Positions 4,959 to 62,453 of a DNA stretch of 62,453 bases are shown here, piece after piece (the stretch's first letter is position 1; every line of letters starts with the position of its first letter). The DNA comes from Bacilli bacterium (GTDB taxonomy: Bacteria > Bacillota_I > Bacilli_A > RF39 > UBA660). The position numbers and the translations under genes are program-made. The notes beneath the pieces are model-generated. The model saw only the letters and a program-made list of their open reading frames with translations. It made no database searches and was not told the origin of the DNA. The stretch is from positions 1-62,453 of the forward strand of contig JAFOMI010000005.1 of the NCBI GenBank assembly GCA_017418945.1. Reading direction: 5' to 3'.

Positions 4959-5118
4959 TTTTTCACCACCTATATAATAACACACTTTTTTTAATTTAAA
5001 AATTATAATTTAAAACAAAGAGATATTAACATATTTAAAAAATAAAATCAAATCACAAAAATATATTTTTTAATGTTATATTTTAACAATAATCTAATTA
5101 TTAAAAAGAATACCTCTA

Positions 5119-5403
5119 TTAATCTGGTATTCTTATAATTATTTCTCCATCTTTTGAATAAAGATATTTTTCTCTAGCGTATCTTGCTACATAATCCGGA
5201 TCTTGAAGTTTAGTAACTGTTGCTTTTAATTCTTCTTCTTTATCTTTTAATTCAATTAATTGATTTTCAAACTCTTTTTTTTCTTTTGATTTTTGATATA
5301 TTTGATACATTGTTTTTCCAACATTATCTATTAATGTTATTCCAAAAACAAGATAAATAATAAAAATAATAAGCATTTTTCTTTTTATTTTTTTTCTTTT
5401 CAA
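5119..5403 (-). CDS. Septum formation initiator (FtsB/DivIC family)
   Basis: Basic N-terminus, one TM helix, a coiled coil (ENQLIELKDKEEELKATV), then DPDYVARYAREKY. It lies downstream of yabP-yabQ as in Bacillus. The start is uncertain (TTG 5403, GTG 5412 or ATG 5376). Confidence 0.7.
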   Translation of the reverse strand: MKRKKIKRKMLIIFIIYLVFGITLIDNVGKTMYQIYQKSKEKKEFENQLIELKDKEEELKATVTKLQDPDYVARYAREKYLYSKDGEIIIRIPD

Positions 5404-5468
5404 ATATATCACTTCCTTTACTGTATAGTTATTTTTAGTTTATCACATTTTTGAATATTGAGTCAAAC

Positions 5469-5741
5469 TTAATTGCTTTTATGTGTAAAGTAATAATCAA
5501 AAAAATATAAACCTAAAATAAAACTTAAAAACATATAAAAATGAAGTGAAAAATTATTTATTTTTTTCAATAGAATAAAATATAATAATGAATGATTTAA
5601 CATAAATAAAAAACTTATTATAAATCTATATATTTTATTTTTATTAAGTAATATTTTCTTATTTATGTTAAATGTAAATTTGAAAAACATTCCATAAATA
5701 AAACTTAGAAATAAAGATTTTAGTTGAACAATTAAAATCAT
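5469..5741 (-). CDS. yabQ: Spore cortex biosynthesis protein YabQ-like membrane protein
   Basis: 90-aa polytopic hydrophobic protein that overlaps the yabP stop by 4 nt, in the conserved yabP-yabQ-divIC arrangement. Confidence 0.6.
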   Translation of the reverse strand: MILIVQLKSLFLSFIYGMFFKFTFNINKKILLNKNKIYRFIISFLFMLNHSLLYFILLKKINNFSLHFYMFLSFILGLYFFDYYFTHKSN

Positions 5742-6025
5742 TTGAATAGTTTAACAAATATAGATGATTCTTTCTTATTTTGTTCTTCTTCATATACTAC
5801 AGAATTAATTTTACCTTTTATTGTAATATTACCCTGATATGTATCTAATTTTATTATTTCTAAATCTTCTCCTTTTATATGCATATTACCTTGTATTGTT
5901 TCTATCATAAACTCTTCTTTATCAAAATTATCTATTTTAATAATTCCTGTTATTATAATATTTTTTCTTTCTGAAACTGAAAATGAATGACTTAAATTAG
6001 TACTAATTTCCTTAATCTTATCCAT
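5738..6025 (-). CDS. yabP: Sporulation protein YabP
   Basis: 95 aa with YabP-like beta-rich repeats (NIIITGI..., MHIKGEDLEI..., NITIKGKINSVVY). Confidence 0.8.
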   Translation of the reverse strand: MDKIKEISTNLSHSFSVSERKNIIITGIIKIDNFDKEEFMIETIQGNMHIKGEDLEIIKLDTYQGNITIKGKINSVVYEEEQNKKESSIFVKLFK

Positions 6026-6088
6026 ATTTTTCCTCCATATTATAAAATATGAAATATTTTTTTATTTAGAACAAAAAAAGAAGCTTAA

Positions 6089-6364
6089 TTAAGCTTCTTC
6101 AGTTGCAACTTCAGCGTTTTCATATTCACCTAAAATTGCTGCTTCTATCATTTGTCTGCCTTCTGGAGTAATTGGATGAACAATATCTCTATATGTTCCC
6201 GATGGTGTTTTTCGACTTGGCATTGCAACAAATAAACCATTATCACCAGCGATTATTCTGATGTCATGAATTGCAATTAGATCATCTAATAGAATAGATG
6301 CTATCCCTTTCATTCTAGAACCTTCTTTTTCTAGTTTTTTAACATTTACCGATGTAACCTTCAT
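6089..6364 (-). CDS. spoVG: Septation/sporulation regulator SpoVG
   Basis: MKVTSVNV...GIASILLDDLIAIHDIRIIAGDNGLFVAMPSRK is canonical SpoVG. The start is the ATG at 6364 after AGGAGGG, so the track's N-terminal extension is rejected. Confidence 0.95.
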   Translation of the reverse strand: MKVTSVNVKKLEKEGSRMKGIASILLDDLIAIHDIRIIAGDNGLFVAMPSRKTPSGTYRDIVHPITPEGRQMIEAAILGEYENAEVATEEA

Positions 6365-6445
6365 ATTATCCCTCCTTAGTAGAATGTTAACTTTATTATA
6401 TAACACGTTTTGTTGAAAAAGCAACACTTTTTTTGTTACTGTTTT

Positions 6446-7042
6446 TTATAGTTCAGTATATTCAGCATCAATTACATTTTTATTTTCTAATTTCTTTGAT
6501 TTTTTTATAACTCTTTTAATTGAAAAACATTCAATTAAATCTAATAAAGAATATACTAGAATTGATATACCTAAAATTTGTACTAATTTTTGAGCACCTT
6601 GAAATGGATTAATAATTAATAGTATTCCAAGTAAAACTATAATTAATGAAATAATAATTGAAGATAATGCACTTTTATTATTATTTAATGTTAATGAATA
6701 AGATAACTTAGTTACTCCATTAATTAACATCCATATTCCAAGAAGTAATGGTATTATACTAGCAATTGTATCTGGTTTAACAAGTATTATTATTCCAAAT
6801 ATTAAAACAAATACTCCTAATATAAATCCAAATTCTAAATAATTTTGACTTTCCTTATCAGTAAAGAATGACACAACTGATATTACTCCCCACGCAATTA
6901 AAATAATTCCTAATGCGTAAGATACTAAATGAATTGCATCTTCTGGTCTTGCCAATAAGAAAGACCCTATTAAAATAAAAATAATTGAAAATAAAATTGA
7001 AGTTATATTCATTTTTTTAATTTTAACTTCTAAATTTTCCAT
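6446..7042 (-). CDS. DUF308/HdeD-like polytopic membrane protein
   Basis: About 198 aa with six evenly spaced TM helices and repeated G-rich helix pairs typical of the HdeD family. Confidence 0.55.
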   Translation of the reverse strand: MENLEVKIKKMNITSILFSIIFILIGSFLLARPEDAIHLVSYALGIILIAWGVISVVSFFTDKESQNYLEFGFILGVFVLIFGIIILVKPDTIASIIPLLLGIWMLINGVTKLSYSLTLNNNKSALSSIIISLIIVLLGILLIINPFQGAQKLVQILGISILVYSLLDLIECFSIKRVIKKSKKLENKNVIDAEYTEL

Positions 7043-7092
7043 AGCTATCACCCAATTTTATTCTAACACAATTATAAATTTAAATCTATATT

Positions 7093-7629
7093 TTATTTTT
7101 TTAAGTATTTATCTATTATTTCTTTAACAAAAAATTTATATTCAACATCTTCTTTATTATTATCATTTGCTTCTATTAAACATAAAGGTGGAAATAAAAC
7201 ACACCAAAAGTTTTCTCCTTTACCTTCGCCTAAAGTAATAACAAGTGATTCATAATTTCCTTCTTTATAAGTTATTCCTTTATATTTTTTCTTTGGAAAG
7301 TAATTATATCCATAGTTAACTGTATATTTTTTATCATACCCTATATTTTTTAATTTATTATTGACTACTTTTGATAACTCTTCTTTGTGTTCATTTATTA
7401 TTCTTCTAATATCATTAATAGATTCTACATTTTTTAGTAATTCAAGTATTCTATTTTGAACTTCATTTCTAACTTGTATTTTAACATTTTGATCATAAAT
7501 TGTATTAGATGCCGCTACTACTCTAAATCTAATAGCTTCATCTGGAATTACAACTTCTTTAGAATCATTACTCTTTATCATATAACTAAATATTAATATA
7601 GAACATAATAATACTATTATTTTCTTCAT
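7093..7629 (-). CDS. spoIIR: Stage II sporulation protein R
   Basis: Has a signal/anchor sequence, IRFRVVAASNT, and the hallmark FWCVLFPPLC motif. Confidence 0.8.
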   Translation of the reverse strand: MKKIIVLLCSILIFSYMIKSNDSKEVVIPDEAIRFRVVAASNTIYDQNVKIQVRNEVQNRILELLKNVESINDIRRIINEHKEELSKVVNNKLKNIGYDKKYTVNYGYNYFPKKKYKGITYKEGNYESLVITLGEGKGENFWCVLFPPLCLIEANDNNKEDVEYKFFVKEIIDKYLKK

Positions 7630-7674
7630 AAAAAAATCATCCTTTCAATTACTTTATGGATGATTTAAAAATTA

Positions 7675-14020: not shown

Positions 14021-14965
14021 TTATTTTTCTATTTTTATTATAAATTCATATAACTTATCAAATTCATAACTATCATAAGTAGATACAAATCCTTCTTCTT
14101 TTAAAGAATTAATAAATTCTTTTACTTTTTCTTGCAATATATCTCTTTTTGATTCATCATTTTCTTCAATCATAATAGGTTCATCATTAATAGTTTCTAT
14201 TTCTCTTTCTTCATTTATATTTCTTAATGATTCCATAGGTACATTATTTATTACTTTTTCTTTAGGCTTATCAAAGAAAGAATCAAAATTTAATGAAGGT
14301 TCTGTTTTAATTTCTGTTTTGATTTCTGTTATATTTGAAACAGGTATATATTCTTCATTATTAATATAACTATTTATTAAATTTTCTGTTTCTCTAACAT
14401 TTAATCTTTCATTCATTATTCTATTTAAAATTTCTACTTGTTCATCTTCATTTTCTATTTTAAGTAAACTTCTAGCATGTCTTTCACTAATCTTATTATT
14501 TAATAATGCATCTTGAACATCATTTGATAAATTTAATAATCTTAATTTATTAGAAATTGAACCTTGAGTTTTACCCATTCTTGATGCTAATTCATCTTGT
14601 GTTAAATATCCTCTATCTAATAATTTTTTATATGACTTTGCTTCTTCAATTGGAGATAAATTTTTTCTTTGAATATTTTCTACAATTGCTACTTCAGCAG
14701 ATTCATTATCATTTAAATCAATAATTATTGCAGGCACTTTAGTTAAACCAGCAATATAAGAAGCTTTATATCTTCTTTCACCTGCAATTATTTCATATTT
14801 AGTTCCGACTTTTCTTAAAACTAAGGGTTGAATAATTCCATGTTGTCTTATTGATTTTGCAAGTTCATTTAATGCATCTTCATCAAAAGATAATCTTGGT
14901 TGAAAACGGTTTGGAATAATATCATCTAACGATACTTCAATTATTTCCTTTTCCATATTATTCAT
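14021..14965 (-). CDS. noc: ParB/Noc-family CTP-dependent DNA-binding protein, Noc-like
   Basis: Has the IPNRFQPR box, a GERR arginine patch, and an HTH (TQDELASRMGKTQGSISNKLRLLNL...KISERHARSL). By eye the HTH resembles B. subtilis Noc (GKGQSTIANKLRLLKL...KITERHARAL) more than Spo0J. The C-terminus (EFDKLYEFIIKIEK) is also Noc-like. It lies directly downstream of rsmG. Confidence 0.8.
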   Translation of the reverse strand: MNNMEKEIIEVSLDDIIPNRFQPRLSFDEDALNELAKSIRQHGIIQPLVLRKVGTKYEIIAGERRYKASYIAGLTKVPAIIIDLNDNESAEVAIVENIQRKNLSPIEEAKSYKKLLDRGYLTQDELASRMGKTQGSISNKLRLLNLSNDVQDALLNNKISERHARSLLKIENEDEQVEILNRIMNERLNVRETENLINSYINNEEYIPVSNITEIKTEIKTEPSLNFDSFFDKPKEKVINNVPMESLRNINEEREIETINDEPIMIEENDESKRDILQEKVKEFINSLKEEGFVSTYDSYEFDKLYEFIIKIEK

Positions 14966-23699: not shown

Positions 23700-25067
23700 T
23701 TGGATAATAAAGACTTAATATGGGAAAAATTTCTAAGTATTATAAAGAAAAGAATTAACTCCGTTGGTTATGATACATGGTTCAGTGAAGCTTATCTATA
23801 TTCTTTAAGTGATGAAGCAGTAATAGTTGTTCCAACAATAACTCATAAAAAACACTTAGAAGAAAAATATATGGATATTATCGAAGATATATTTAATTCA
23901 ATAACTGGAACCAATTTTATAATTAAACTAGTTCTTGAAAATGAAATAGAGAAGAAAGAAATAAAATTAAATGATGATTTAATTGATGAAGAAGTAGGTG
24001 TTCCTTTAGTTAGTTATAAAAAGACTAATTTAAATCCAGATTATACCTTTGAAAACTTTGTAGTAGGAGAAAGTAATAGATTTGCACAAGCTACTGCACT
24101 TGCTGTTGCAGAAAGTCCTGGTAAAATGTATAATCCTTTATTTATATATGGAAATAGTGGACTTGGTAAGACACATTTAATGCATGCTATTGGTAATTAT
24201 ATAATAAAAACAACTAATAAAAGAGTATTATATACAAATACAGATGACTTTGTAACTGAATTTTTAGGATTAAATAGATCTTTTAATAAAGGAAATAATT
24301 TAGAAAAAGTTGCAGCATTTAAAGATAAATATAATAATATAGATGTATTAATAATAGATGATATACAATATTTAGGAAATGCTCCTAAATCACAAGAAGA
24401 GTTTTTCCACACATTTAATAAACTTTTTGATAACAAAAAACAAATAATAATATCTAGTGATAATTCACCAGATGATTTAAAAAATCTAGAAGATAGATTA
24501 AAAACAAGATTTAACTGTGGATTAAAAGTTAATATTTTTCCACCAGACAATGAATTAAGAAAAAAAATATTAAAAAATAAGATAGCAAATATGAATTTTG
24601 AGTCTTCAATATCAGAAGATGTTATTGATTATATTGCTAATACATGCCAATCAGATGTTAGAAACTTAACTGGTGCATTAACAAGAGTATGTGCTTATAA
24701 CACAGTTTTCTACCAAGATGTTATAACATTAGATTTAGCTATAGAAGCATTAAAAGGTACAATCCATAATGCTACTAATACAACAAATGATATAGTAAAA
24801 ATACAAAGAGTAGTTGCAAATTATTATAATGTTACTGTTGAAGACCTAAAATCAAAGAGAAGAGTTTCTACAATAGCTTTTCCAAGACATATTGCAATAT
24901 ACCTATCTAGATTATTAACAGATGAATCATTAATAAGAATAGGAATGGAATTTGGTGGCAGAGACCATACAACAGTAATGAGTTCAATAAAAAAGATAGA
25001 TAAAGACATAAAAAGTAATAAACAATTAGCAGAAATAATTGAAGAAATTAAGAAAAAGTTAGAATAA
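23700..25067 (+). CDS. dnaA: Chromosomal replication initiator protein DnaA
   Basis: Has AAA+ Walker A (GNSGLGKTHL) and Walker B (LIIDDIQ) motifs and a domain IV DNA-binding signature (RHIAIYLSR...GGRDHTTV). The start is an apparent TTG at 23700, 5 nt after GGGGGAGGTG. Confidence 0.96.
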   Translation: MDNKDLIWEKFLSIIKKRINSVGYDTWFSEAYLYSLSDEAVIVVPTITHKKHLEEKYMDIIEDIFNSITGTNFIIKLVLENEIEKKEIKLNDDLIDEEVGVPLVSYKKTNLNPDYTFENFVVGESNRFAQATALAVAESPGKMYNPLFIYGNSGLGKTHLMHAIGNYIIKTTNKRVLYTNTDDFVTEFLGLNRSFNKGNNLEKVAAFKDKYNNIDVLIIDDIQYLGNAPKSQEEFFHTFNKLFDNKKQIIISSDNSPDDLKNLEDRLKTRFNCGLKVNIFPPDNELRKKILKNKIANMNFESSISEDVIDYIANTCQSDVRNLTGALTRVCAYNTVFYQDVITLDLAIEALKGTIHNATNTTNDIVKIQRVVANYYNVTVEDLKSKRRVSTIAFPRHIAIYLSRLLTDESLIRIGMEFGGRDHTTVMSSIKKIDKDIKSNKQLAEIIEEIKKKLE

Positions 25068-26499: not shown

Positions 26500-26952
26500 A
26501 TGATTTCTTATGAAATAAATTGTGATACATTAGCTTTAATTCCAGTATCTGAGAATGAAACAAAAATAATTGAAAAAGAAAGAGAATTTATTGTTAATGT
26601 ACCAGTATTTAAAATAATAGAAAACAGTTGTGAATATTTTGGGAGTTCTTATTTAGGAAGACATGAAGGAACTAAAAAATTGATAGGTATTACTCATAAA
26701 GCACCTATAATAATTGAAGAAACTAATAAATTAATATATTTTCCTACAAGTTCGCCTAGATTATTTAATTGTAGTTGGATAGGTTTAAATCATATAAAAA
26801 ATTATCAAAGTAATAATGGAAAAACTGTTTTATCATTTAATAATGATGAGAAAATAAGTCTTGATATTTCGTTTGGATCTTTTGATAATCAGGTTTTAAG
26901 AGCAACTAAATTAGAATCAGTTTTAAGAAAAAGAATAAATCAATCAAATTAA
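26500..26952 (+). CDS. comK: ComK-family competence transcription factor homologue
   Basis: 150 aa. It aligns by eye to B. subtilis ComK: CEYFGSSYLGRHEGT against CRFFGSSYAGRKAGT, ITHKAPIII against ISHKPPIMV, CSWIGLNHI against CGWISHVHV, and SFDNQVLRA against SFENQVYRT. Confidence 0.8.
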   Translation: MISYEINCDTLALIPVSENETKIIEKEREFIVNVPVFKIIENSCEYFGSSYLGRHEGTKKLIGITHKAPIIIEETNKLIYFPTSSPRLFNCSWIGLNHIKNYQSNNGKTVLSFNNDEKISLDISFGSFDNQVLRATKLESVLRKRINQSN

Positions 26953-32564: not shown

Positions 32565-32597
32565 AAAACTATGTTTCTTATGAAACATAGTTTTTTA
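32565..32597 (+). terminator. Intrinsic terminator after gyrA
   Basis: CTATGTTTC-TTAT-GAAACATAG followed by T6. Confidence 0.7.
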
Positions 32598-32616: not shown

Positions 32617-32644
32617 AAAAAATATTTCCCGGGAAATATTTTTT
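32617..32644. promoter_or_regulatory. Noc-binding-site (NBS) type palindrome, copy 1
   Basis: A perfect 28-bp palindrome, AAAAAATATTTCCCGGGAAATATTTTTT. Its core TATTTCCCGGGAAATA equals the published B. subtilis NBS consensus ATTTCCCGGGAAAT. Confidence 0.7.
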
Positions 32645-32656
32645 ATAAAAATTAAA

Positions 32657-32678
32657 TAATGTTTCACGTGAAACATTA
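32657..32678. promoter_or_regulatory. parS centromere-like site 1
   Basis: A perfect 22-bp palindrome, TAATGTTTCACGTGAAACATTA. Its core at 32660-32675 matches the Firmicute parS consensus TGTTNCACGTGAAACA. Confidence 0.8.
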
Positions 32679-32719
32679 AAAAAATTGACTTATTAAATAA
32701 TAAATAGTATATTATAAAT

Positions 32720-32790
32720 GCACAACGAAAAACTTGGAATCAGGTCAGGATAGAAATATAGCAGCCTTAACATTTAATTTTCGTGTGTGC
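32720..32790 (+). ncRNA. ffs: Signal recognition particle RNA, small (4.5S-like) form
   Basis: A single hairpin of about 71 nt. The 5' GCACAACGAAAA pairs with the 3' TTTTCGTGTGTGC. The conserved domain IV sequence CAGGUCAGG-AUA-GAAA-UAU-AGCAGCC corresponds to E. coli CAGGUCAGGUCCGGAAGGAAGCAGCC. TTGACT-N17-TATATT lies upstream (32685-32713) and a T7 run follows (32791-32797). Confidence 0.8.
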
Positions 32791-32816
32791 TTTTTTTGTG
32801 TATAGGTGAATAATAT

Positions 32817-33221
32817 ATGAATGAAAATAAAATATTAAATGAATTAAATAAACTTTTAAATAAAGCAATAAAGCATAATGAAGTACCAGTTGCAGCATTA
32901 ATAATTTATAAAAACAAAATTATTTCAAAAGCTTATAATAAAGTTAATAAAAAAAATAACATTTTAAATCATGCAGAAATCATAGCAATTAAAAAAGCTT
33001 CAAAAAAATTAAAAAATTGGAGATTAAATGATTGTATTTTATATGTAACATTAGAACCATGTGATATGTGTAAATCAATTATAAAAAAAACTAGAATTAA
33101 AAATATAGTTTATTATTCAAAACAAAATTTAAATAAAACAGAAAATGATCCTATATATTTTTATAAAGAAAATATTATATTTTCCACTTTATTAAAATCA
33201 TTTTTTCAATCAAAAAGATAA
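32817..33221 (+). CDS. tadA: tRNA adenosine(34) deaminase
   Basis: Has CDA-fold zinc motifs (HAE in NHAEIIAI, PCDMC in LEPCDMCKSII). It sits next to ffs and dnaX, as in Bacillus. Confidence 0.88.
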   Translation: MNENKILNELNKLLNKAIKHNEVPVAALIIYKNKIISKAYNKVNKKNNILNHAEIIAIKKASKKLKNWRLNDCILYVTLEPCDMCKSIIKKTRIKNIVYYSKQNLNKTENDPIYFYKENIIFSTLLKSFFQSKR

Positions 33222-33237
33222 TGTTTCACGTGAAACA
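33222..33237. promoter_or_regulatory. parS site 2
   Basis: TGTTTCACGTGAAACA, starting at the nucleotide right after the tadA TAA stop. Confidence 0.8.
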
Positions 33238-33256
33238 TGGTTTCATTTAGTTTTAA

Positions 33257-33272
33257 TGTTCCACGTGAAACA
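33257..33272. promoter_or_regulatory. parS site 3
   Basis: TGTTCCACGTGAAACA, identical to the classical B. subtilis parS 16-mer and exactly 35 bp after site 2. Confidence 0.8.
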
Positions 33273-33291
33273 TAGTTTTATTTTAATTTAA

Positions 33292-33307
33292 TGTTTCACG
33301 TGAAACA
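33292..33307. promoter_or_regulatory. parS site 4
   Basis: TGTTTCACGTGAAACA, exactly 35 bp after site 3. Confidence 0.8.
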
Positions 33308-33414
33308 TACAATACGATATCAATCAATGTTTCATAAAAGAGCAAAACATAGTATTAATTATATTTTATAAATTTTATAAAATTTAAATGCGAAAATTTT
33401 ATTTAAAAAATACC

Positions 33415-33442
33415 AAAAAATATTTCCCGGGAAATATTTTTT
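33415..33442. promoter_or_regulatory. Noc-binding-site (NBS) type palindrome, copy 2
   Basis: A 28-mer, AAAAAATATTTCCCGGGAAATATTTTTT, identical to copy 1. Confidence 0.7.
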
Positions 33443-33455
33443 ATGAATTAGATAG

Positions 33456-33477
33456 TAATGTTTCACGTGAAACATTA
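33456..33477. promoter_or_regulatory. parS site 5
   Basis: TAATGTTTCACGTGAAACATTA, identical to the 22-mer of site 1. It lies 13 nt after NBS copy 2. Confidence 0.8.
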
Positions 33478-33569
33478 CTGTTTTTTTATAAAAAAATAGT
33501 CCAGAAACCCTTTATTTATATAGAATTTTAAACAAAATGTGATATAATTAACATGAAAGGAAAATGTAT

Positions 33570-35225
33570 ATGTTATACCAAGCATTATATAGAAAATATA
33601 GACCTAAAACATTTAATGATGTATGTGGACAAAAAATAGTGGTTCAAACATTAAAAAATACAATTAATTATAACAAATTAACTCATGCTTATATGTTTGT
33701 TGGACCTCGTGGTACTGGTAAAACAAGTATTGCAAAGATATTTGCAAAAACAATTAATTGTGAACATCCAATTGATGGTAATTCGTGTGAAAAGTGTGAA
33801 ATTTGTAAATTATCAAATAATAATGAAAATGTAGATATAATTGAAATGGATGCTGCTTCTAATAATGGAGTGGATGAAATTCGTGAAATAAAAACTCATG
33901 TTACTCTAATGCCAACATTTTCAAAATATAAAGTTTATATTATTGACGAGGTACATATGTTATCATCAGGAGCTTTTAATGCACTTTTAAAAACATTAGA
34001 AGAACCACCAAAACATGTAATATTTATTTTAGCTACAACAGAGCCTCAAAAAGTTCCATTAACAATTCTTTCAAGATGTCAATGCTTTGAATTTAAACCT
34101 ATTCCTTCAAACTTAATGAAAGAAAAAATAAAATATATTTCTAATGAAGAAAATATTGAAATAGAAGATTCTGCGATTGAACAAATATGTATTGATTCAA
34201 ATGGAGGATTAAGAGATGCAATAGGTTTATTAGATCAATTAAATTCTTATACTAATGGAAATATTAAAAAAGAAGATGTCTTATTATTGAATGGAAGATT
34301 AAGTACAGAACAAATAAATAAATTTATAGATTATATATGTGATAACGATATTAATTCTGTTTTTAATTTTAGTAATAAAATTGATGAAGATGGTAAGGAT
34401 TATCAATTTTTTTGTGAAGATATAATTAAATATTTAAAGGATTTATTATTGGATCATCAAATTAATAAGAGAAACGAAATTGTAAGTAAAATAGGAAAAG
34501 ATAATATCATTAATATAATATATTTAATATCAGATTATATAAACTATATAAGAAATGTTAAAGAAAAGAAAATATATTTTGATTTATTAATAATAAAAAT
34601 GTTAGATTTGTTAAATAAAACAAATGTTCGTATTACTGAAACTAAGGAAGTTTCTAATGAATTAAAGAAAACTGAATTAAAACAAGATAATATACAAATT
34701 AAAATTGCTGAAGAAAAGATTGAAGAAAACAAAGAAAAATTAAATCCTAATCAGTCAAATAATTATTATGATTATAAAGAATTAATGAAAATAAGATTAA
34801 ATAATATTTTAAGAATTGCAGATAGAGAATCGTTAAAAGAATATATAGAATTCTTTGACCAATTAGAAGGAAGTTTAGATAATTTAGATGAGAGAAAAAT
34901 ATATAATTTATTATTAGATTGCTCTATTAAGGCTGGTTCTAAAGATGGTATAATAATAACAGCATCTAATGAAAATATACTTAACGAATTATATGATAAT
35001 TTCTTTGATATTGAAAAATTATTTATTAATAAAATTTCTAAAGAATTAAAAGTATGTTTTTACTTAGATTCTGAATGGGATAGTGAAAGAGCTATATATA
35101 TTAAAAAAATAAAAAATAAAGAAAATATTGAAGAATTAGATGAAAAAAATATTTTTGAAAAAATTAAAGATAAAGATAAATCAGAAAATAATGAATTTGC
35201 TGATTTATTAGAGATAGGAGAATAA
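33570..35225 (+). CDS. dnaX: DNA polymerase III subunit gamma/tau
   Basis: Contains YRKYRPKTFNDVCGQ, Walker A (GPRGTGKTS), a zinc module (CEHPIDGNSCEKCEIC), DEVHMLS and SRCQ. The start is ATG 33570 (better SD spacing) or 33564. Confidence 0.95.
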   Translation: MLYQALYRKYRPKTFNDVCGQKIVVQTLKNTINYNKLTHAYMFVGPRGTGKTSIAKIFAKTINCEHPIDGNSCEKCEICKLSNNNENVDIIEMDAASNNGVDEIREIKTHVTLMPTFSKYKVYIIDEVHMLSSGAFNALLKTLEEPPKHVIFILATTEPQKVPLTILSRCQCFEFKPIPSNLMKEKIKYISNEENIEIEDSAIEQICIDSNGGLRDAIGLLDQLNSYTNGNIKKEDVLLLNGRLSTEQINKFIDYICDNDINSVFNFSNKIDEDGKDYQFFCEDIIKYLKDLLLDHQINKRNEIVSKIGKDNIINIIYLISDYINYIRNVKEKKIYFDLLIIKMLDLLNKTNVRITETKEVSNELKKTELKQDNIQIKIAEEKIEENKEKLNPNQSNNYYDYKELMKIRLNNILRIADRESLKEYIEFFDQLEGSLDNLDERKIYNLLLDCSIKAGSKDGIIITASNENILNELYDNFFDIEKLFINKISKELKVCFYLDSEWDSERAIYIKKIKNKENIEELDEKNIFEKIKDKDKSENNEFADLLEIGE

Positions 35226-61775: not shown

Positions 61776-62453
61776 ATGGGAATAATAAAAAAATTATTTG
61801 ATTATGAATATAAAGAAATGAAAAAATTTACTTTATTAGCAGATAAAATAGAAGCTAAAAAAGAAGAATATGAAAAATTAAGTGATAAGGAATTACAAAA
61901 TAAAACTGAAGAATTTAAAAAAGAATTAAAGAATGGTAAAACATTAGATGATATTTTAGTAGATGCTTATGCAGTAGCAAGAGAAGCTTCTAAAAGAGTT
62001 ATTGGTGAATTTCCATACTATGTTCAGTTATTAGGAGCTATATCAATTCATTTTGGTAATATCTCTGAAATGAAAACTGGTGAAGGTAAAACATTAACAG
62101 AAGTAATGCCTGCATATTTAAATGCATTAGATGGTAAGGGTGTTCATATAGTAACAGTAAACGAATATCTTGCTGCACGTGATGCTGAATGGATGGGTAA
62201 AATCTTTAACTTTTTAGGATTAACTGTAGGTGTTAATGGAAGAGAATTAACTCCACAAGAAAAACAAGCAGCATATAATGCTGATATCTTATATTCAACT
62301 AATAATGAAATAGGTTTTGACTATTTAAGAGATAATATGGTTGTTAGAAAAGAAGATAGAGTACAAAGACCATTAAATTTTGCAATAGTAGATGAAGTAG
62401 ACTCTGTACTTATAGATGAAGCAAGAACTCCACTTATTATATCTGGTGGTTCT
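61776..62453 (+). CDS. secA: Preprotein translocase ATPase SecA (5' part, runs off the window)
   Basis: An open frame from ATG 61776 to the window end (226 codons, absent from the ORF track because it has no stop). It contains MKTGEGKTL (Walker A), VTVNEYLA and [20 protein letters not shown]. Confidence 0.95.

Follow-up and report, generated by a model that had tools for sequence, protein, structure and literature searches.

The 62,453-nucleotide stretch of Bacilli bacterium DNA analyzed here (GenBank assembly GCA_017418945.1, contig JAFOMI010000005.1; hereafter the window) is a replication-origin region in which two kinds of palindrome, the Noc-binding site (NBS) and the ParB site parS, stand side by side between gyrA and dnaX. 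Among DNA-binding paralogues, ParB and Noc are the textbook pair, having evolved to bind sites that exclude one another and to serve different functions. The pairing of sites recurs in at least 120 related genomes, nearly always at the same place, and there the two sites often alternate in long arrays, and both a Noc-like protein and a canonical ParB are encoded in the clade. We consider it probable that two paralogous, cytidine triphosphate (CTP)-dependent DNA clamps load near the origin in the intergenic spaces of the gyrA-ffs-tadA-dnaX segment, which would serve as a centromere-like zone.

Paired NBS and parS sites in the window and its relatives

An identical 28-bp perfect palindrome, AAAAAATATTTCCCGGGAAATATTTTTT, occurs at 32617..32644 (NBS-1; core TATTTCCCGGGAAATA at 32623-32638) and at 33415..33442 (NBS-2; core at 33421-33436). 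Each copy is followed by an identical 22-bp perfect palindrome, TAATGTTTCACGTGAAACATTA, at 32657..32678 (parS-1; core TGTTTCACGTGAAACA at 32660-32675) and at 33456..33477 (parS-5; core at 33459-33474). The spacers of these two modules are 12 and 13 nucleotides (nt) long, and the center-to-center distances are 37 bp (NBS-1 to parS-1) and 38 bp (NBS-2 to parS-5); the original prediction, made from the window alone, had all of these coordinates, palindromes, spacers, and distances exactly right. Three more parS sites lie between the modules: parS-2 (33219..33238; core at 33222-33237), which begins directly after the tadA stop codon; parS-3 (33254..33273; core at 33257-33272), 35 bp from parS-2; and parS-4 (33289..33308; core at 33292-33307), 35 bp from parS-3. 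The parS-3 core is a variant, TGTTCCACGTGAAACA, which is the classical parS consensus itself (TGTTCC variant), and the 20-mer TAATGTT[TC]CACGTGAAACAT is common to all five parS sites. The parS palindrome TGTTNCACGTGAAACA is thereby represented near oriC by five sites at 32660-33474, 7.5 to 10 kb from the origin and dnaA. All seven NBS and parS sites are palindromic and were assigned no strand. A decayed sixth parS on the plus strand forms the gyrA terminator hairpin (32567..32597; core at 32572-32587, TGTTTCTTATGAAACA, with three mismatches to parS).

The NBS 16-mer has two perfect matches in the window and no other with fewer than three mismatches (shuffles gave 0.33 at ≤3 mismatches); the parS 16-mer has four perfect matches plus the variant at 33257 (shuffles, 0.24). 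CCCGGG occurs in the 62 kb only within the two NBS, and CACGTG only within the five parS and once at 62176, where the context is not parS-like, in keeping with the earlier statement that no other CCCGGG-centered or parS-type CACGTG-centered copies exist. When the modules are compared, the palindromes match exactly, about 5 of 12 spacer positions are alike, and nothing beyond a few A residues is common to the flanks, a pattern also described correctly at the outset.

Relatives were searched with the 14-mer cores only, leaving the flanking bases unselected, in one genome per species (GTDB), with NBS within 6 to 36 nt of parS. Uncultured low-GC Bacilli showed NBS beside parS in at least 120 genomes at species level. 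Nearly all are "Bacilli bacterium" metagenome-assembled genomes (MAGs) from animal and human guts; other labels were Clostridium sp. CAG:710, CAG:417, and CAG:1000, Erysipelotrichaceae, Tenericutes, and Mollicutes. The clade is named here by depositors' labels (NCBI taxonomy puts "Candidatus Scybalousia" under Bacteroidales, and "Inordinaticella" is absent). Among the matches listed, 119/120 loci have the sites between gyrA, tadA, and dnaX, in the gyrA-ffs-tadA-dnaX order of the window. The flanks of the cores, which include 306 perfect NBS 14-mers, rebuild the published 16-mers, with T at position −1 in 99% (NBS) and 97% (parS), and so give independent grounds for the initial identification of the palindromes as NBS and parS. 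Clade-wide, the extended NBS consensus is AAAWT-ATTTCCCGGGAAAT-AWTTT, and parS is extended to A-parS-T.

In many species NBS and parS form tandem arrays in strict alternation, with 11 + 11 copies in locus L055, 9 + 9 in L075 (unit, 75 bp), 8 + 8 in L012 (unit, 64 bp), and units of 76, 82, 84, and 117 bp in further arrays. Every unit consists of one NBS and one parS, across independent arrays of differing unit length. Array units are 90 to 92% identical; within arrays, the cores differ at 2.2% of positions versus 7.1% for the spacers (p = 7e-8). Over 119 loci, runs in the site order numbered 596, against 489 expected under random labeling (z = 9.2).

As an independent check, metagenomes were scanned for NBS alone with A/T flanks, which yielded 186 NBS on low-GC contigs, 134 of them (~72%) in the gyrA-dnaX neighborhood. 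A parS lay ≤60 bp from 59 of the 186; 52 of these 59 were in gyrA-dnaX context, and the remaining 7 had no recognizable flanking gene, at least 2 being on contigs of 1.0 to 1.4 kb. A further 32 were within 500 bp of parS in the gyrA-dnaX locus, and 43 were unpaired yet in the gyrA-dnaX neighborhood. The scan thus agrees with the genome search that the pairing is kept in relatives. The pairing is locus-specific, and NBS is concentrated at gyrA-dnaX, not confined there. The composite NBS-parS pattern had no matches in viral contigs, which indicates that the arrangement is not mobile.

Outside this locus the sites are scarce: 861 kb from other loci of the clade yielded 2 NBS and no parS, and the rest of the window has neither. 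The coding sequence of dnaX holds a perfect NBS with A/T flanks in 29/75 related genes (L059, L027, L023, L071, and others). It lies ~65% along the gene and is translated I-S-R-E-I via TCC and CGG, codons that are near-unused in the genome; this NBS is a predicted protein-binding site kept under selection within the gene. The proposed module pairing is conserved in relatives, alongside lone NBS in the dnaX of many relatives and a few NBS elsewhere. Two outcomes that the original prediction had named as refuting it, high-copy dispersal of the palindromes and a pairing absent from relatives, were both contradicted.

Clade-wide, NBS-parS distances range from ~21 to 51 bp, and the distributions for NBS followed by parS and for parS followed by NBS are alike. 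The distances peak at 26 to 27, 35 to 36, and 47 to 48 bp, with troughs at 30, 41, and ≥51 bp; these three classes are about one helical turn apart (period, 10.5 to 11.5 bp) and fall at roughly half-integer turns. The periodicity power was reached by 0/5,000 uniform shuffles, and with one distance per locus it was near the 99.9th percentile of the null (p ~0.001). No helical periodicity was present in clade-wide parS-parS distances, and helical phasing among parS sites was rejected on that ground. The fixed 37- to 38-bp spacing that had first been proposed was likewise rejected, since it is not kept even in the closest relatives.

Noc-like and ParB proteins of the clade

The only ParB-family gene in the window (14021..14965, minus strand; 314 amino acids) lies directly after rsmG, which is the noc position in Bacillus, and is also found on metagenome contigs with the same gene order. 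Its product has Pfam ParB_N and HTH_ParB domains and intact CTP motifs. Against the NCBIfam Noc model TIGR04285 it scored 277.4 bits (cutoff, 315), with a match spanning model positions 1 to 199 of 255, and this score exceeded that of the generic ParB model. The best PDB/Foldseek matches were all Noc (7NG0, 7NFU, and 7OL9), with 206 bits for 7NG0 and 7NFU versus 172 for Spo0J, and the predicted DNA-binding domain matched the Noc-NBS complex 6Y93 with a template-modeling (TM) score of 0.91.

The specificity residues are Q-K-N-R in the window protein, which aligns residue by residue to Noc 7NG0, and in 119/120 close homologues; position 184 is N, or S/A/T/G/V in the wider clade. Published work on these residues (Jalal et al. 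2020) reports that Q173 reads A1, the A that sets NBS apart, that R201 reads C6, that a single lysine at 179 or 184 suffices for NBS specificity, and that R173 is always retained in parS binders (PMC7383237); the available part of its deep-mutational-scanning text gave no score for Q-K-N-R. With Q-K-N-R, these rules predict that the window protein binds NBS and not parS, and it is the presumed NBS-binding clamp.

An N-terminal amphipathic membrane helix was not found in the window protein, in its 120 homologues, or in 24 of the 26 readable Noc-like proteins of the wider clade; the longest open reading frame in the window starts 19 residues before the RFQPR motif, and the alignment to 7NFU begins at chain residue 26. 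In Noc, this helix is needed for membrane recruitment and occlusion (PMC8429893). By sequence the suggested Noc paralogue thus resembles Noc, but it is without the membrane helix on which Noc function is defined. The linker of the window protein is long, acidic, and disordered and contains a conserved I-D-F-N-T/S-F-F motif at residues ~222 to 231, reading SLNFDSFFDK (F-x-x-F-F pattern; compared with homologues P0001-P0120), and some Noc-like homologues also have GFGLGKG and IEDKVYP repeats. The N-terminal membrane helix of Bacillus subtilis Noc contains FSRFF, a pattern that the linker F-x-x-F-F fits, and the linker motif may represent a peptide for binding membrane or a partner that has changed its place.

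An initial scan for ParB at codon level (GK.R....N.LRLL) returned 100 matches, none from the clade. It missed the clade ParB because the helix reads LGLL, and the idea that the clade has no ParB was discarded once a second scan, on GERR.RA...EN.QRE motifs, revealed a ParB family with LGLL, not LRLL, in the recognition helix (KSRSHITNMLGLL) and with R173 and G201 still present (L240, L275, L384, L400, and ~100 further loci). A control pattern matched 3/3 available clade noc-like genes. The family-specific scan found ParB encoded in 106/115 loci; 80 of the 106 motif-parsed proteins had R173 and G201 and the rest had S at 201, ParA was adjacent in 91/106 loci, and the Noc-like gene was just upstream in 26/106 (all among the matches listed). 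The best solved relative of the clade ParB is B. subtilis Spo0J (6SDK), with 211 bits versus 151 for Noc. Five MAGs have both an NBS-parS cluster and parAB (CANORV01, CACYWH01, CAKOMK01, JAQVVC01, and CAJUTW01), and in CANORV01 the two are on one contig.

No canonical ParB was found in the 120 site loci or around the noc-like genes, and soj-spo0J does not follow noc. The window encodes no R173/G201 ParB and no ParA-type Walker A motif in its 62 kb, and we infer that its own genome has parAB outside this stretch. With matching specificity residues in both protein types, the clade data support two paralogous clamps, one of the two options first suggested, and not the other, a single bispecific protein.

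Clostridia-labeled genomes often carry Noc-type genes with Q-K-K/R-R directly upstream of parA-parB (L127, L137, L144, L146, L165, L193, L202, L208, L216, and others), and Noc-type specificity residues are thus not limited to Bacilli; these loci have many parS and essentially no NBS.

Gene neighborhood of the sites

The window has a GC content of ~23% and uses the standard bacterial code. dnaA is at 23700-25067, the GC-skew switch is at ~23 kb, and the two modules are 7.5 to 10 kb from the origin and ~9 kb from dnaA. The minus strand carries, in order, rnpA-yidC-jag-mnmE-gpsA-sigA-mnmG-rsmG, and the plus strand carries dnaA-dnaN-comK-recF-gyrB-gyrA-ffs-tadA-dnaX-recR.

Two plus-strand genes are flanked by both modules. 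ffs, encoding the small signal recognition particle RNA (32710..32806), matched Rfam RF00169 with 54.9 bits (gathering score, 40); parS-1 lies 7 bp upstream of the −35 element of a promoter-like site for ffs. tadA (32817..33221) matched NCBIfam TadA (E = 4e-24; 85 bits, below the curated cutoff of 150), and its synteny is kept in 97 related loci. dnaX (33564-35225, plus strand) is downstream of parS-5 and has no internal NBS in the window.

A ComK-family gene (26500-26952, plus strand; Pfam, 160 bits) stands between dnaN and recF, with the same position in 26 related loci; given a lineage that is reduced and uncultured, this is an unusual location for a regulator of competence. The sporulation-type genes spoIIR, spoVG, yabP, and divIC also lie near the origin, on the minus strand at ~5000-7650 in the window and in L121 and L448 as well, which suggests a possible capacity for sporulation in these uncultured low-GC Bacilli. 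At the locus edge of relative L121 (20531-20972), near the origin region, is a gene for a 7,562-residue repeat protein with Flg_new and DUF285 repeats.

A probable loading zone for two clamps, its rivals, and known systems

From these sequences we infer binding, CTP-dependent clamping, co-occupancy, and a biological output. Canonical ParB, whose gene would lie with parA at another place in the genome, would nucleate at parS, and the Noc-like product of the gene after rsmG would do so at NBS. Interleaving near 2.5, 3.5, and 4.5 helical turns would let neighboring dimers co-occupy the DNA on roughly opposite faces, and the released clamps would coat the same few kilobases beside oriC as one mixed nucleoprotein complex. 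Its ParB part would serve ParA-driven segregation as usual and probably condensin loading, and its Noc-like part, via the linker motif, would add a second origin function, for which a tether or mark for the division or segregation machinery is our best guess.

More tentatively, and with the balance somewhat against it, the Noc paralogue could here be a second, obligate centromere component and not a nucleoid-occlusion factor, so that ParB and the Noc-like clamp without a membrane-targeting helix, on helically phased, alternating sites, form one mixed partition complex at the origin. Such an arrangement could be a remnant of an early step in the divergence of Noc from ParB, or else Noc put to a new use; one loading zone shared by a pair of paralogous CTP clamps would have no natural precedent.

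Several points weigh against the two-clamp loading zone. Binding is predicted from sequence, and the organisms are uncultured. Pairing is not obligatory, as relatives show parS runs without NBS and lone NBS inside dnaX. In the metagenome scan, 52/186 (~28%) of the AT-flanked low-GC NBS lay elsewhere, without parS, and on this account the idea that NBS is strictly confined to the origin cluster was dropped. In the closest relatives (GyrA, 95 to 96% identical), the NBS-parS distance in the first module is 48 and 57 bp versus 37 bp in the window, and the periodicity test cannot wholly remove shared ancestry. The clade ParB has LGLL versus the near-universal LRLL, and its parS specificity is thus assumed; parA-parB was not seen for the window's own genome or its closest relatives and was seen only in clade members with ~64 to 73% GyrA identity to the window. 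Finally, the linker motif falls in an AlphaFold region with a predicted local distance difference test (pLDDT) score of <50, where the structure is uninformative.

The main rival, which we regard as unlikely though still deserving of weight, is co-location: two independent systems, each in need of noncoding DNA close to the origin, share real estate because a compact genome has few long spacers near oriC, tandem duplication of a segment that by chance held one site of each kind makes the arrays, and the systems are not coupled. The variable spacing (21 to 50+ bp), which shifts between close relatives, fits this explanation, as do the parS-only runs and the unpaired NBS, including those in dnaX and elsewhere; the 90 to 92% identity of array units also implies that part of the alternation comes from recent duplication. 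Yet the alternation exceeds random order over the 119 loci, arrays of differing unit length arose repeatedly, each with one NBS and one parS, and tight pairs also occur in nonarray genomes such as the window. NBS-parS distances are also helically periodic, whereas parS-parS distances are not. Moreover, in 744 kb from other AT-rich Firmicutes with both Noc-type and ParB genes, there were 62 perfect parS (83 at ≤1 mismatch), commonly near parB, but no perfect NBS (2 at ≤1 mismatch).

A boundary or roadblock function seems improbable. Here, site-bound Noc-like dimers would confine sliding ParB clamps, or the reverse, keeping the partition complex compact and clear of the promoters of ffs, tadA, and dnaX. 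Proteins bound to DNA can obstruct ParB-family clamps as they slide, the sites lie directly beside promoter-like and terminator-like elements, and interleaving sets a tight binder between each pair of loading sites. However, both window modules run in one order, NBS then parS, and are not mirrored around the parS array, there is no orientation preference clade-wide, and Noc itself is reported to slide away from its site as a clamp (PMC8429893).

One bispecific ParB-family protein reading both palindromes, which the original prediction had offered as an option, is very improbable. It drew on the single ParB-family gene in the 62-kb window, the absence of soj-spo0J from its ancestral place after noc, and the empty first scan for a clade ParB. 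That scan is now accounted for by the LGLL helix, a separate ParB family with R173, G201, and an adjacent ParA is present in the five MAGs that carry the NBS-parS cluster, and Q-K-x-R proteins are predicted to be NBS-specific, whereas parS binders require R173 (PMC7383237).

Terminator-like hairpins in the window are the decayed parS after gyrA and parS-5 with its T run (33450-33483) upstream of dnaX, and no other window site scores as such; L037 and L100, the nearest relatives, have at the gyrA terminator hairpin a longer palindrome that encloses a perfect parS. Termination is probably a second role of some parS hairpins, and a subsidiary one. A reading of every palindrome as a generic hairpin (an intrinsic terminator or a repetitive extragenic palindromic [REP]-like repeat) is hardly credible despite these hairpins and the A6/T6 flanks on NBS, as the sites are not the high-copy dispersed elements that this requires, exact sequence and not pairing potential is conserved, the NBS hairpin has too few G-C pairs for a terminator score, NBS is also kept within coding sequence, and the cognate protein types are encoded in the clade.

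The component families are known; the NBS-parS arrangement and the helix-less Noc are new, and a literature search for NBS-parS juxtaposition or arrays found no description. Adjoining sites with a helix-less Noc offer a natural test of the behavior of two CTP-gated sliding clamps that share a stretch of DNA (whether they cooperate, block each other, or co-condense) and bear on the rise of Noc function after ParB duplication. In practical terms, they supply an orthogonal site pair, at defined spacings, that can be used in vitro and in ParB/Noc-based DNA-labeling tools. They also give a picture of the probable centromere in gut Bacilli that make up a large, uncultured group.

Plasmid centromeres likewise consist of tandem arrays of short protein-binding repeats (the F sopC repeats; P1 parS with two box types). 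P1 parS sets its two motif types at fixed helical phasing, and in plasmid systems one ParB reads all motifs. In contrast, the present sites comprise two motifs for two predicted paralogous partners, and they are chromosomal, kept across a clade, and without viral-contig matches.

Like chromosomal ParABS centromeres, the clade has canonical parS clustered within 10 kb of oriC and a Spo0J-type ParB with an adjacent ParA. It differs in that parS is interleaved with sites for a second, paralogous clamp, in its tandem arrays of up to 11 composite units, in the presumed movement of parAB away from noc in the window's lineage, and in the LGLL of its ParB.

The Noc-NBS system of B. subtilis and Staphylococcus aureus shares with the clade the 16-bp palindrome, the gene position after rsmG, the CTP motifs, and the Q, K, and R residues, and Noc is the closest protein by sequence and fold. 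Published Noc departs NBS as a sliding clamp and needs its N-terminal amphipathic membrane helix for occlusion (PMC8429893), whereas the clade protein has no such helix, has N (or S/A/T/G/V) and not K at position 184, scores under the curated Noc cutoff, and has a long, acidic linker. Known NBS are also scattered, with 41 loci over the chromosome's origin-proximal half in S. aureus and a spread over two-thirds of the chromosome in B. subtilis (PMC5540599), whereas those of the clade are piled up within ~1 kb beside parS, with few dispersed.

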